Positions 12,572 to 59,433 of a stretch of 64,000 nt of DNA are shown here, piece by piece. Position numbers and translations under genes: made by a program. Position 1 is the first letter of the stretch. The number at the start of each line of letters is the position of its first letter. The DNA is from Octopus vulgaris (taxonomy: Eukaryota), in NCBI GenBank assembly GCA_951406725.2, contig OX597842.1, positions 34,286,001-34,350,000 of the forward strand. Direction: 5' to 3'. The notes under the pieces are model-generated. The model worked only from the letters and a program-made list of their open reading frames with translations. It did no database searches and was not told where the DNA came from.

Positions 12572-12871
12572 ATAACTTATGAAATAAGGGTAAAAGAAAA
12601 ATTCTAATGCCAAATATGCCGAAAAAAAGCACAAAATTGTCAATAACCATTATAATTTATGAGTTCCAGAACATACTGATAGAAATTTCTAAAAAATTCC
12701 GTTATTACCGTATTAGTCCCAATTTCGGGGTTAATTCATAAGAATTTTCCCCTCGTCACCGATAAATACGTAATTCGGGACGCATAAATTATGATGGTTA
12801 TTGACAATTTTGTCTTTCTTTCGGCATATTTGGCATTAGAATTTTTCTTTTGCCCTTATCTTATAAGTTAT
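12572..12871. repeat. Inverted repeat with about 95-bp arms and a degenerate hammerhead-like motif in the spacer (Penelope-like remnant)
   Basis: 12572-12667 pairs with 12777-12871; minus strand reads GTGACGA-gggg..cccc-GAAA. Confidence 0.7.
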
Positions 12872-13224
12872 TTATAAATTTAACCTTTAAAGGTATTTTT
12901 TGATATGCTGGCCATTGATAAAATTTCTTTTTGAGAAAAATTGTAGCCTACATTAGATATATATATATATATATAAGTGTGTAGAAGTGTTGAGTAAAGC
13001 ACTGGCATGGTTTGGGCTACCTGGGGTCATCTGCAGTTGGAGTATATTTACGATGAAACACAACATAATGAAAGGGGTCCACCAAAAAGAGATAAAAGCC
13101 GGATGGGTCGAAACGATCGTAGTGCAAAATAAAGACTAATACCATATTTATCGTCTCGTTGCTTCATCAATTATATATGTATATGTATATATACATCTGT
13201 GTATGTGTGTGTATGTCTAGATTC

Positions 13225-18276: not shown

Positions 18277-18590
<314 letters not shown>

Positions 18591-18619
18591 ATATATATAT
18601 ATATATATGTATGTATGTA

Positions 18620-18864: not shown

Positions 18865-18917
18865 TGTACTTATATATAGCAAGTAACTTGATCTGAGATC
18901 GTGTGCTGGAACAAAAA

Positions 18918-19156
18918 CAATTGCAGCGTGGAAGGTGTTTGTAAGCCATTTAAGAAACACACAAAAACCGTTCGATTCACTTCAACATTTAAATTTAATT
19001 TGTCAAAATATTTTCGTCGATAAAATCCGTTTGTCAGTGAACAGGTCGCGGATTTTAGCGACGAAAATATTTTGACAAATTAAACTTAAATGTTGAAGTG
19101 AATCGAAAGGCTTTTGTGTGTTTCTTAAATGGCTTACAAACACCTTCCACACTGCA

Positions 19157-19160
<4 letters not shown>
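18918..19160. repeat. Near-perfect palindrome with about 112-bp arms in (TA)n
   Basis: 18918-19029 pairs with 19049-19160; 19-nt spacer. Confidence 0.92.
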
Positions 19161-19200
<40 letters not shown>

Positions 19201-29664: not shown

Positions 29665-30036
29665 TTTATAATTAGGGTTCAGCAACGATTTGCTTCATCA
29701 CATACCGAAGTTTAGAAATAGCAGTCAAAAAATCCTAGCTATTCCTTCCACTTTAAAAGGGGCTCCCAGAAAAACTTAAGCTTACCATGAAATGGTCTTT
29801 TTCATGCCGAATTCTACTTGGTGAAATTACTGATTACTTCTTAATTAATTAATAATACGCTTTGTTATTATTTATATATATATATATATAATATAATATA
29901 ATATAATATATTATATATACAATTAAAAAGGATGACCGGCACCACTTTTGCTAAAAATAAGAGCTAAAATAACTCAAAAGCCGCGTAAGCACTGAACTTG
30001 ATGACCGAGAAAGGGAGGAAAGACCGTAGCATAAAT

Positions 30037-30092
30037 AGTCGGATCGCGTTTTCGGATTTCGTTGGAGACCATCTTAATACTCATCAGCGACT
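30037..30092 (-). ncRNA. Type I hammerhead ribozyme motif
   Basis: agtcg-CTGATGA-gtatt..aatcc-GAAA-acgcga-TC-cgact; 5-bp stem I. Confidence 0.62.
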
Positions 30093-30976
30093 CTTAATGC
30101 CTAGGGTTAAACTCAACTACCCCCTGTCAGTCTTATAAGACAAACCGTTACACATTGATATATTTGTATGCATATATATATATATGTGTGTGTATGTGTG
30201 TTTGTGTGTGCGTTTGTATGTGTGTGTTTGTGTGTGCGTTTGCATGTGTGTGTTTGTGCGTTTGTGTATGTGTGCGTTTGTGTGTGTCTTTGCGTATGTG
30301 TTTGTGTGTGTTTGTGTATGCGTTTGTGTGTGTTTGTGTGTGTGTATTTGTGTGTGTGTATGTGTGTATTTGTGTGTGTGTATGTGTGTGCATATGTGTG
30401 TGCGCGTGTGTGTGTATTTGTGTATATATGTGCGTGTGTATTTGTGTTTGTATGTGTGTATGTCTGTGTGTATAAGTGTGTATGTGTGTGTGTGCATGTG
30501 TATGTGTCTGTATATTTCTGTGTGTATATGTGTGTATGAGAGTGTGTGCGTGTATGTGTGTAAGAATTCAAGCGTGTACGTCAATAGGAAGTAGGTCTCG
30601 CGTTACGGCTAGACTTTCGAAACCCCTTGATTCCGTAACGCGGAAAAAGGCTGATAAATTCGCAGCCATAGTAACCATGATATTATTAGGTCAATCCTTG
30701 TTAGAATCGGTGAAGCGGAAGATAAATTAATGCCGTTGCTTCGCTTATTTATGAAGCTTCACGTCCGGGGTTCAATTCCCAGGCGGGATCGACTTTGTCT
30801 TTTCATCTTTTCAGGGTTCGGGTCACGTGGGTCTGACTAACTGAAGTACCAGTCGTGTACTGGAGTCGTCGTAATTGATGTTTTTTCTTGCTTCCTTCAA
30901 TTTTTTTGTTTGTATTTTTTGCAAGCCGCCGTTGGATTTGGAAGGCGGGAAAGGATGAGAGAGTTTATGGTTTGTA

Positions 30977-33459: not shown

Positions 33460-34303
33460 TTATATATATGTATATACGCATGTGAAAATGCGTATATATG
33501 TATACCGACTGGATGTGTGAGTGTTTTGAACTGTAAGCCACACGCCCAGTCCTTCCGCCACCCCGCAAACTGCAATCCTTCCAGATTCGGCAAACGGGTT
33601 CTTCCGGTTGACTGCATAACAACACAGACTGCAACGCCACCTAGCCACAACCGACACTCGCCAACCTCATAACCCACGACGTCCTGTGATGATGGCTGTG
33701 ATGATGGTGGTGTCGGTGGTGGTTGTGGTGGTGGTGGTGGTGGCGGCAGTGGTGGCGGTGGTGGTAGCGGTGGTGGTGGTGGTGGTGGTGGTGGTGGTGG
33801 TGGTGGTGGTGGTGGTGGTGGTGGTGGTGGTGGTGGTGGTGGTGGTGGTGGTGGTGGTGATGGTAGTGGTGATGATGGTGGTGGTGGTGGTGGTGGTAGT
33901 GGTGGTGGTGGTAGTGGTGGTGGTGGTGTGGTGATAGTATTTTCGCTTTATTTTCCCCAGCTAGTCATGTGACACCTACATCTGGGTTCCCCGCACATTG
34001 GCAGATGGCGAGACTGTCACGGCTGGATTGTCTTTCATTGTGTGATTTCTCCATCAAGACTGACTTCGGACTAAATAACAACTATAGTTACTTACTACTA
34101 TACTATACATTAGATAATGTAGTCCTAGATACACTATGCCTGAAGGTAAGATGGGATGGTCACAGCTGGAACCTCTTTGATCATGAGCAAAAATATAGAT
34201 GTACCTTTGGATATTATACGTGAACCTATCAATTCATTTCAGCAGAATCTACTGAAATGAATTGATAAGTCCACATATAACATTGCAAGGTACACATTTT
34301 TTG

Positions 34304-34397
34304 TCTCTGATGAAATTTTGCTCATGTCACATAAATGCAAATTTGAAGTACAAATTTGTAACTAAATTATTGAATCTTAATTGAAACGGTTGTAAGA
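34304..34397 (+). ncRNA. Type I hammerhead-like motif in an interspersed element (about 34210-34470)
   Basis: tct-CTGATGA-aatt..aatt-GAAA-cggttg-TA-aga; diverged reverse copy at 59150-59320. Confidence 0.5.
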
Positions 34398-34596
34398 AGC
34401 GAAGACGACCAATTTATTAATAATAAATAATTGTTAACTTCCTTATCTCCATTTTCTTTTCTTCTTTTAAATGTATGTAAGCTATACACACGCGCGCGCA
34501 CACTCACACACTCACATACACATACACACACACATATATATATAAAGTTGTAAATAAAGCATGAAAACCAAACTTGGAATTTCCTTGAGTAATACG

Positions 34597-48194: not shown

Positions 48195-48500
48195 GGATAA
48201 TATCGATATTTAAAATATCGATATTTAAATATCGATATTATCAAGTGGCCAGCATGAGAAAAATACCATACAAAGGTATTAATTTTTTACATCTAAAAAT
48301 ATGGGTGTTTGAGAGACACCACCATGCCGAAATAGCAGTCAAATTCAGGATCTTGAATTATTCAGTAATATTTTTTGCTAGCCTATTTTGTCCCTCTGTC
48401 TTATCTTATGGTGCGATATGAACATTTAACGTGGTTTTTAGAGCCAGGGATTTGACTGCTATTTCAGCATGGTGGTATCTCTCAAACACCCTTAATTTTA
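48190..48500. mobile_element. Interspersed AT-rich element with 41-bp internal inverted repeat
   Basis: 48303-48343 pairs with 48451-48491; related pieces at 5660-5742 (minus) and 6435-6590. Confidence 0.6.
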
Positions 48501-48507
48501 ATTGTAA

Positions 48508-48556
<49 letters not shown>

Positions 48557-48626
48557 TATATACATACGTATATGTACATGCTTATATCTATACGTCTTCC
48601 CTTCCTTGGATCTTTCCTTTTCCTAT

Positions 48627-48661
48627 GTTTCTGACGAAGAGCTCCGCTCGAAACGTTGAAT
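48627..48661 (+). ncRNA. Minimal type I hammerhead motif in a Penelope-like fragment (48590-48768)
   Basis: gttt-CTGACGA-a-gagc-tcc-gctc-GAAA-cg-TT-gaat. Confidence 0.58.
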
Positions 48662-48791
48662 CTTCCTTCTTTCTTTCCTTTCCTGAGAGTCCTATAACAC
48701 TATACTTGTTCCACGTCCTCGTGTTGTTGTGTTTTCTCTTTGTGTCTTCATGTTTGGATTAACTTTATAAATATACATATATATATGTATG

Positions 48792-49615: not shown

Positions 49616-49654
<39 letters not shown>

Positions 49655-49687
49655 TGAGCGAGAAAGAAGCAACAAGAATGGATTGGT

Positions 49688-49778
49688 TTTTAGTACAATT
49701 GTTTCATACAAAGACAGGCTTTATTAAAAGTTGCAAAAATTGCAGCAGATAAAAGTGTCCCGTACTCATCAGCTAAAA
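49688..49778 (-). ncRNA. Type I hammerhead ribozyme motif
   Basis: ttttag-CTGATGA-gtac..gtat-GAAA-caattg-TA-ctaaaa. Confidence 0.7.
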
Positions 49779-50125
49779 TACGTATGAGTTCTCCAAACAT
49801 CTTAGTGGGTGAGGCTATACTCATGAAGTATTGGAAATAATTTCATTAAAAGCAGATTTAGGTTGTAAACAGTTTTCCGAAGTTCCTTATTGATGATGCA
49901 CAGTCTTATCACAGGTTTTTAAAAAAGCTTATTAGCTTCTACGGATTAATTCACCTTCTCTGTGAAGCTAATAAGTTTTTTTTAAAAACCTGTGATAAGA
50001 CTGTGCATCATCAATAAGGAACTTCGGAAATCTGTTTACAACCTAAATCTGCTTTTAATGAAATTATCTCCAATACTTCATGAGTATAGCCTCACCCACT
50101 AAGATGTTTGGAGAACTCATATGTA

Positions 50126-50216
50126 TTTTAGCTGAAGAGTACGGGACACTTTTATCTGCTGCAATTTTTGCAACTTTTAATAAAGCCTGTCTTTGTATGA
50201 AACAATTGTACTAAAA
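50126..50216 (+). ncRNA. Type I hammerhead ribozyme motif
   Basis: ttttag-CTGAAGA-gtac..gtat-GAAA-caattg-TA-ctaaaa. Confidence 0.7.
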
Positions 50217-50346
50217 ACTAATCCATTCTTGTTGCTTCTTTCTCGTTTATAATCACCCCACATTACTGTATGGTTAACACCATATAGTTTTCTGGTGCAT
50301 CTAAGTTAAGTACCGCATTCAAGTAAATTCATTAGAATTGACTTGA

Positions 50347-50396
<50 letters not shown>

Positions 50397-50460
50397 GGAG
50401 TAAACACATAAATGTGAAACAAGGTGGAAAAAAGAGTACTCAAATACCAGTGGTAGAGTA

Positions 50461-50628
50461 ATATGCTTTATTTTAAGCAGCAGAAAATTCAACAAAATCT
50501 GTTACTCTGAGTTTCTCGTTGCCGTTCATCAGTCAGTTTTTGCTAGCAAAAACTGTCTGATGAACGGCAACGAGAAACTCAGAGTAACAGATTTTGTTGA
50601 ATTTTCTGCTGCTTAAAATAAAGCATAT
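50461..50628. repeat. Spacerless palindrome with about 84-bp arms
   Basis: Centred on tttttgc|tagcaaaaa (GCTAGC near 50544); near-perfect arms. Confidence 0.93.
50553..50590 (+). ncRNA. Minimal type I hammerhead motif (mirror copy at 50499-50536, minus)
   Basis: ctgt-CTGATGA-a-cg-GCAA-cg-a-GAAA-ctcagag-TA-acag. Confidence 0.62.
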
Positions 50629-50779
50629 ATATATATACAGATGCAAGCAGAGTTTTGGTCAGTTAGCAACTGAACTTCACAACCTAAAATTCATATCTAC
50701 ATCTTTATCTTTATATTTACCTTCCCTAAAATGTTATTACTTGATTTGAAAGCTTTTATATTATTGGAAAACCTATATA

Positions 50780-50870
50780 AATTGGCTGAAGAGTACTTAG
50801 CATCTTAAATCTGCTGTAATACTTACAACTTTTAATAAAATGTTGTAGTACGAAACAATTGTACCAAATT
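50780..50870 (+). ncRNA. Type I hammerhead ribozyme motif (relative of 50126-50216)
   Basis: ttgg-CTGAAGA-gtact..agtac-GAAA-caattg-TA-ccaa. Confidence 0.72.
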
Positions 50871-50899
50871 ACCGGAATCATTCTTGTTGCTTATTTTTG

Positions 50900-50996
<97 letters not shown>

Positions 50997-58705: not shown

Positions 58706-59433
58706 GTGTTCATCTGTCTATCTGCCTATATATCTGTCTATATTTCTATCTTTCTATCTATGTCTATCTACTTAACTATCTATCTGTGTGTCCGTGTATC
58801 TACCTATCTACCTATTGATCTATCAATCTATCTATCCATCTATCTATCTATCTGTCTATCTCTCTGTCTGTCTATCTATCTATATCTATATATCTACCTA
58901 TCTATCTATCAACCTGCCTGACTATCTATCTGTCTATATATTTATCTATCTATCAGTCTATCAATATATCAACCTACATATCTATACACACACATGCACA
59001 CACGTGTATGCGTGTGTTAGCATGGACGTGTGGTTATTAGCAATAAGGTGAATATTTTCCCCACACAGCTTAAAGTACTCAATACTTTCCAAGAAGTGAG
59101 TAATTACGGCGTTAATATTACCGTGGTTCTCGTCAGTCACGTGCACAACAAGAAAAGAAAACGGAGATAAGTAAGTTAACAATTCTTTATTATGAACAAA
59201 TTGTTCATCTTCGCTTCTTTACAGCCGTTTCAAGTAATACTCAACAATTTAATTACAAAGCTGTACATTGTATTTGCATTTATGCCATATGAGCATAATT
59301 TTATCTGAGAAGGAAAAGCTTTCTTGGGATATTACATGTGGACCCATCAATTTGTAAGTAATTAATAATTAACTTCCTTATCTCCATTTTCTTTTCCTAT
59401 TTTAAATGCATATAAACTATATGCTTTATATAT

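Follow-up and report, generated by a model that had tools for sequence, protein, structure and literature searches.

The three hammerhead-bearing repeats clustered at positions 49,655-50,996 of the window, the 64-kb stretch of Octopus vulgaris DNA analysed here, are very probably truncated 3' ends of autonomous, TA-targeting Penelope-like elements (PLEs) of the Hydra type, and their palindromes likely arose in single insertions from two starts of reverse transcriptase (RT). We found that the repeats are linked to coding parents, that they have two fixed 3' ends and one tail per insertion, that their junctions vary, and that variants are common to both arms. An earlier, sequence-only reading of the window had described a PLE-made, TA-targeted, hammerhead-bearing population, and this was borne out by longer copies that join RT and endonuclease (EN) frames. 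Its proposal that the population is non-autonomous was not supported, as A, B, and C derive from coding PLEs, whose ends they represent, 5'-truncated or inverted.

Read directly from the window sequence, the cluster is formed by three repeats, A, B, and C, spaced by TA tracts. Two of the three are palindromic with a one-sided extension, as had been claimed; the extension lies at the right in A and at the left in B, and C is a single arm. Element A (49,659-50,351) has arms at 49,653-49,926 and 49,978-50,251 with 97% complementarity and an extension of about 105 nt. Its inverted 5' arm (49,659-49,939, minus strand) is a second pseudo-LTR (pLTR) copy that starts at the inner 3' end and is tailless. 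The sense arm (49,939-50,245, plus strand) is the 5'-truncated 3' end of a Hydra-type PLE, with a start that lies 424 nt from the 3' end of the family, and the extension (50,246-50,351, plus strand) is the tail, the sequence between the two 3' ends. With positions -n counted from the outer 3' end of each family, the window copy of A ends at -424 and -399 and is an ordinary family member. A (TA)n target microsatellite (50,352-50,394) separates A and B. Element B (50,395-50,628) is centred on CTAG at 50,543-50,546, and its extension of about 71 nt is the tail (50,395-50,465, minus strand), an exact 54-mer of which has 3,094 genome matches. The B sense arm (50,466-50,546, minus strand) ends 152 nt from the 3' end, within the pile-up of 5' ends of its family, and the inverted arm (50,543-50,628, plus strand) starts at the inner 3' end and meets it via the 4-nt CTAG overlap. 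Element C (50,638-50,901, plus strand) is an older, tailless, single-arm PLE 3' end, related to A at about 74% over the hammerhead region. PLE stubs adjoin each other not only in the window (49,659-50,901) but also at L135:5819-6399, L046, and L054. The A/B/C cluster is explained by the (TA)n flanks that each PLE insertion leaves, which are targets for the next, so that stubs stack. In the 64-kb window, tblastn found no match to a parent RT or EN. Upstream of the cluster, between TA tracts, lies a short inverted repeat (48,235-48,345 and 48,450-48,514; 91% over 65 nt).

The strict descriptor used for type I hammerheads follows the general consensus of this motif. It agrees with the motifs tabulated in File S2 of PMC8557442. 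Applied to both strands of the 64 kb, the strict descriptor found four motifs, all within the cluster, and local dinucleotide shuffles (n=30) gave a mean of 0.13 and a maximum of 2. The fifth of the five motifs named in the sequence-only reading was recovered with a relaxed descriptor. In A, the inverted-arm motif (49,694-49,772, minus strand) has an intact CUGAUGA core, a 60-nt helix II insert, and a palindromic CAAUUG helix III; the sense-arm motif (50,132-50,210, plus strand) has a CUGAAGA core and a predicted cut after 50,210. In B, the inverted-arm motif (50,557-50,586, plus strand) fits the strict descriptor and is, by eye, near to the Hydra-2_aMil motif in PMC8557442. The sense-arm motif of B (50,503-50,532, minus strand) is the one found by the relaxed descriptor, and its first helix I pair is broken in the window copy where the family has CTGT. 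The motif of C (50,786-50,863, plus strand) has a long helix II and, in helix I, a G-C pair where A has A-U. A conserved core, three helices, an NUH site, and compensated stems, which characterise type I hammerheads, are all present in the cluster motifs. With search patterns that presuppose GAAAC and the NUH site, the CUGANGA core occurred in 114/117 A/C-type matches and in 101/135 B-type motifs, with C at core position 2 in a further 26/135. These 26 form a B subfamily (L087, L102, L144, and other copies) with CCGAUGA or CCGACGA cores. Since this subfamily spread anyway, an optimal core is unnecessary for transposition.

The 150 of 479 matches that an Rfam scan listed were dominated by simple repeats and included no hammerhead, and as monomers 0/6 motifs folded better than their shuffles (z, -0.79 to +0.66). 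Going by the literature, the cluster hammerheads are probably weak in cleavage, or cleave as dimers or with the aid of proteins. The ends of cDNA were not in excess at the predicted B cut (6/141 at -104 to -112). Hammerhead-cut RNA was rejected as the RT template because ends are not enriched at the cut site; the hammerheads would instead ride along uncut in the copied templates.

The DNA search with family A gave 3,117 candidates, of which 40 were scored, at 95-100%, and the copies share a common 3' end and differ at the 5' end. A GIY-YIG frame was located upstream of the repeat, within 1.5 kb, at 13/30 best loci, and Pfam placed such a GIY-YIG-like frame below its cutoff (E 4.6e-4). As found at L134 and L135, RT and EN frames are joined to pLTR copies that are 97-98% identical to window A, and at L132 a 984-aa ORF lies between 84% relatives of the A pLTR, one on each side. 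The A tail leads into the ORF in tandem copies. In the A ORFs (L131-L136), RT and EN are separated by a long Asn-rich insert, as reported for rotifer Penelopes. Among the 25 best C matches, a sample biased to long ones and kept outside the 5'-end counts, C was continuous at L057 with a GIY-YIG frame that shares 62% identity with its A counterpart.

The first search with B recovered 40/40 near-identical full palindromes. This search was biased to the centre because the arm alone had been skipped as too common. The exact B tail pattern had 3,094 matches, and the perfect 44-nt centre was present in 125 exact copies. A position-ordered sample of 100 copies was taken from the start of the list of tail matches; every copy lay on contig C1 and had the intact tail that the pattern required. 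Of these 100 copies, 6 had the perfect centre and 11 ran on for 1.2 kb or more, and the junctions varied. A fixed-length B element of 235 nt was therefore rejected by this sampling; the fixed-length non-coding copies for which the sequence-only reading had proposed a test were an effect of search bias, and most junctions are unique. Long B copies pass through a 1.2-kb 3' UTR into EN and RT, and B is continuous with both in L137, L141, and L142. The tail was followed by TA-type sequence in 97/100 copies and by an ORF start in 3/100; tail and ORF start were joined in 69 exact matches genome-wide, and this ORF start carries RWK and DKT. The B protein had 1,953 homologs at E up to 0.001, in which the same motifs are present.

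As expected of EN+ PLEs, RT (YRDD) and GIY-YIG frames are continuous with the pLTR in A and B, so that the proposed extension of the repeats to these domains was reached; for C, only the EN frame was seen. Partial tandems forming pLTRs, an inverted 5'-truncated copy, and a tail at one end were also found, as in this group. RWK and DKT lie at 64 and 151 in the A relative L132 and at 37 and 113 in B. Across 85 homologs aligned over 650 aa, RW[KR] was present in 78, DK[TS] in 84, and DKG in 0. The linker is CxCx5C in A and, by eye, in C, CCHH is absent, and CxxC and CxH are located near the EN end. In three B copies the linker is CxFx5C, with F at the second C, and CxxC and CxH are kept. The canonical hammerhead and the (TA)n insertion of the Hydra type were both observed. 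Pfam assigned 0 families to either full protein, with GIY-YIG below cutoff only. The Hydra clade, which includes Hydra-1_Obim of Octopus bimaculoides, is described by RWK, DKT, a modified linker, absence of CCHH, a hammerhead, and a (TA)n target (Craig et al. 2021, PMC8557442). From their motifs, hammerhead, and (TA)n target, the families appear to match this clade. The O. vulgaris repeat annotation contains 31 recently active Penelope-like families, and its main text, as far as available, is silent on hammerheads (PMC13282606). Families A, B, and C may already be catalogued in repeat libraries.

The inverted arm was present in 61/100 B copies, starting at the inner site in 57, at the tail start in 2, and elsewhere in 2. 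For A, we used 70 position-ordered copies among the first 100 listed of 270 matches; four rows of the first 74 were left out as neighbours or already sampled loci. The inverted arm was present in 40/70, and 38/40 started at the inner 3' end, the remaining 2 leaving the fetched stretch or being other matches. The untailed arm outran the tailed one on the 5' side by more than 10 nt in 11/59 B and 12/38 A copies. BLAST end calls can overshoot by 1-4 nt, and about 10 spurious TA "inverted" matches had been removed by admitting only arms whose outer start lay within 90 nt. Variants that recur among 49 B palindromes were common to the two arms in 67 cases and confined to a single arm in 11, and several of the latter were at CpG or junction positions. 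The B junctions mostly showed short overlaps. In the 70 A copies, 5' ends lay anywhere between -88 and positions beyond -1,200, and a mild hotspot (24/86 ends, -195 to -219) fell on a self-complementary stretch. Local microhomology therefore also shapes junctions, and part of the B peak at CTAG may be due to it. One A locus, L279, holds three tandem copies of one palindrome with an identical junction, apparently a DNA-level duplication through TA tracts.

These results make it probable that the palindromes form by two nicks, two starts, and head-to-head joining. The RT-endonuclease would nick both strands of the (TA)n tract; one nick would prime at the outer RNA site and yield the arm with the tail, and the other would prime at the inner site and yield the arm without it. 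The two cDNA 3' ends would then join head to head at short self-complementary stretches. Two sense-RNA cDNAs joined at their 3' ends account for the start sites, the common variants, the overlaps, and the overreach of either arm. Fold-back of a single cDNA was rejected because it fails to explain an untailed arm that outreaches the tailed one. An inverted truncated PLE copy plus a tail has been described (PMC8557442), and in vitro a PLE protein cuts and extends both strands, uncut RNA serves as substrate, and two RT start sites bound the tail (PMC11167929). Both papers describe the origin of PLE head-to-head repeats and tails as unresolved. These high-copy young families offer a countable record, with one tail per insertion, arms of the same subfamily, mutual overreach, absence of hammerhead-cut templates, and a cap-like G at a fixed stop. 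This record speaks for two rounds of priming on sense RNA rather than self-priming on an antisense template.

The sequence-only reading had named random 5' truncation of catalogued PLEs as one outcome that would speak against it. Such truncation is largely what we found, except that in B it piles up at a defined site. Of the B arms that reach -135, 77/120 stop at -135 to -157, just before the hammerhead. The end rate per nt was 6.5% at -150 to -157, versus 0.4-0.5% downstream and 0.2% at -181 to -300. The stop has a sharp upstream edge near the A at -155 in CCATTCT, 17 nt before the hammerhead core, and we take this heptamer to be an initiator-like motif. B copies without an inverted arm also stop there (8/30), and ORF-bearing tandem copies do so in 1/25 (Fisher p=1e-8), some of the 25 long arms being two halves of one insertion. 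Since the ORF-bearing copies pass -155, the stop is not a plain RT block, and this explanation was rejected. The base before A(-155) was G in 30, A in 16, and T in 54 of the first 100 of 815 matches; most of the extra G could stem from the partner arm, although by eye 2 cases cannot. In family A, ends at -234 to -250 numbered 6/60, and a start-site pile-up was not clear.

Family D (18,880-19,161, plus strand) has the two-ended design and is the 3' end of a Neptune/Nematis-type PLE without a canonical hammerhead core. It is young and abundant, with 1,668 exact matches, and its parent type was judged by eye from a CxxxxCxxC linker and a CCHH-type EN in L339. In 65 stretches among the first 100 listed of these matches (L333-L397), 50/67 arms ended either at one particular A, which belongs to an initiator-like TCAGA, or inside it. 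In the 30 arms stopping at this A, the preceding base was a non-native G in 21, the native C in 6, T in 2, and A in 1; about half of the extra G could stem from the partner arm, although by eye about 10/21 cannot. The G excess of B is weaker than that of D and more confounded. D keeps a hammerhead-like three-helix layout, with CAGUGAA replacing CUGANGA in at least 1,668 exact matches, and its 5' stop coincides with a branch point, pyrimidine tract, and CAG of textbook form.

An extra G is what RT leaves on reading a cap. On balance, most short B arms seem to be run-off products of a capped RNA made by polymerase II, with its start about 155 nt upstream of the 3' end. RT would copy an RNA begun within the pseudo-LTR up to its 5' end, giving a strong-stop-like product. 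Full-length B copies do not start at -155, and a second, longer template must therefore be assumed; an mRNA start at -155 as their source was unsupported, as these copies begin elsewhere. Splicing to the AG before helix I was also rejected for B, because ends run 3-7 nt past the AG and share no common upstream exon. D has no common upstream exon either, but there the splice acceptor and the initiator coincide, and splicing may still account for the stop. In contigs from runs guessed to be RNA, no splice joint was found at the AG before helix I, and two single contigs carried a template-switch adaptor at other positions. The pLTR of D. virilis Penelope contains an internal promoter (PMC2377424), whose start lies 46 nt before an intron ending at helix I (PMC2377424, PMC4209133). 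This position is a precedent for a start close to the hammerhead.

We more tentatively consider that the PLE product is strong-stop-like with fused double-hammerhead palindromes, that stubs record the capped start, and that those keeping it form a self-renewing, PLE-dependent class of mini-elements distinct from retrozymes. If this possibility is true, RT starts at 5'-proximal pLTR sites of an RNA begun shortly before the hammerhead and, on each of the two nicked target strands, copies as far as the cap; thousands of genomic stubs then record the RNA start site, cap included. PLE stubs of run-off or capped-end type turned up in no publication, in a search mostly confined to papers outside subscription. 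The fixed 5' stop and its cap-like G add modestly to what is known of the PLE mechanism, and they name exact bases. The remaining layout (palindrome, one-sided tail, and (TA)n targeting) is the published PLE footprint and already known.

The pile-up might instead reflect local sequence only, through CTAG or TGCA annealing, TA microhomology, or RT pausing, without any defined start of the RNA. B arms end most often at the CTAG palindrome (15 ends at -152), the A hotspot is self-complementary, and the D stop region has the self-complementarity GATGCAGC/GCTGCATC. However, long tandem B copies read past the site, uninverted B copies stop at it, and D arms stop at a single base with a non-native G, and we regard this explanation as rather unlikely.

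It is unlikely that short B copies are a self-propagating, non-autonomous, SINE-like element copied in trans by the parent RT. Short copies are far commoner, as the 3,094 tail matches against 69 tail-plus-ORF matches indicate, and the identical perfect centre recurs at 125 loci. A stub ending at -155 would also retain the putative initiator, the hammerhead, and both RT start sites, and pLTR sequence alone can act in trans (PMC3846280). However, B junctions are mostly unique, with the perfect centre in just 6/100, and the same stop recurs across several subfamilies. No asymmetric variant marks a B master, save in one probable local duplicate pair (L181/L182), and the 5' end of any RNA derived from a parent would yield stubs with the same ends. 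Run-off copying from parental RNA remains our preferred reading, although DNA sequence by itself fits both.

Non-LTR retrozymes, in which non-coding self-cleaving tandem repeats yield circular RNAs, share type I hammerheads, low GC, and pLTR kinship with A, B, and C (bioRxiv 10.64898/2026.07.22.740005). This identity is very improbable for the present families. A second direct motif within 1.2 kb was found in 2/100 B copies only, so that tandem arrays are absent in B, and the sole A triplet seen (L279) is a local duplication of the whole palindrome. All three families run into coding frames, and their ends are off the cut site. We dismiss MITEs, that is, DNA transposon derivatives with TA target duplications, although the elements are short, palindromic, and TA-flanked, and near-identical in the first B search, because they have asymmetric ends, varying centres, no fixed length, and parents that encode RT. 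Near-identical short palindromes such as those of B can be misfiled as MITEs or retrozymes.

At least five other families in the window had been said to share the design. This held for the palindromes at 12.6, 18.9, and 34.3 kb, but the repeats at 18.5/48.6 and 30.0 kb are single arms. Hammerheads had been attributed to the 18.9 and 12.6 kb repeats; the former lacks the CUGANGA core, and none was detected in the window copy of the latter. The 12.6-kb repeat (12,572-12,957; copies L313-L332) is an older palindromic family with two 3' ends, and a Hydra-type frame lies near L314. Its other copies have CUGANGA, then a long insert, and GAGAC replacing GAAAC, a motif lost in the window copy. The repeat at 18,390-18,592 (minus strand) and 48,581-48,765 (plus strand), read by eye, is single-armed with a minimal hammerhead whose helix III is only CG, and it is non-palindromic here. 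Hammerhead-like motifs were read by eye in older repeats at 30,035-30,100 (minus strand), 34,176-34,430, and 59,150-59,430; the 34.3-kb repeat has a helix II of about 69 nt and a 77% palindrome.

The families are like the Hydra-clade PLEs of PMC8557442 in RWK and DKT (A and B), a C-terminal GIY-YIG without CCHH, CxxC and CxH, the CxCx5C linker (A and C), the type I hammerhead of the pLTR, (TA)n targets, and a 5'-truncated inverted copy with a tail at one end. They differ in tail length, which is 71 nt in B and about 116 nt in A against the 30-40 published for the clade (PMC8557442), in the 59-60-nt helix II of A and C, in the long Asn-rich insert of A, and in the CxFx5C of B. From Hydra-1_Obim, A, B, and C differ by eye in the N-terminal protein and the hammerhead. 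The minimal or dimeric PLE hammerheads (Cervera and de la Peña 2014, PMC4209133) likewise have a palindromic helix III, variant cores across subfamilies, and, as in B, an extra base before helix II; the present candidate motifs differ in the long helix II of A and C.

Metazoan retrozymes are tandem, non-coding, and yield circular RNA (Cervera and de la Peña 2020, PMC7229834; Li et al. 2026 preprint, bioRxiv 10.64898/2026.07.22.740005). Their type I hammerheads, PLE kinship, and dispersed monomers resemble the present families; here, head-to-tail arrays are absent, coding parents are continuous with the stubs, and ends are unrelated to the cut site. The Penelopes of Adineta vaga share with our families head-to-head palindromes at the 5' junction, an optional tail, Asn-rich inserts, and an initiator-like pLTR motif (Arkhipova et al. 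2013, PMC3846280). That study favoured self-priming on an antisense template, whereas the present data fit two sense-RNA copies better. Poseidon_Ac in vitro is similar in its two RT starts bounding the tail, its AT-rich targets, the cutting and extension of both target strands, and the use of uncut RNA (Frangieh et al. 2024, PMC11167929). In the available text of that study, inversions are unexplained and 5' run-off stubs unreported. Unlike in Poseidon_Ac, the two arms of one insertion here use different starts, and the arms of B and D end at a fixed point on the 5' side.
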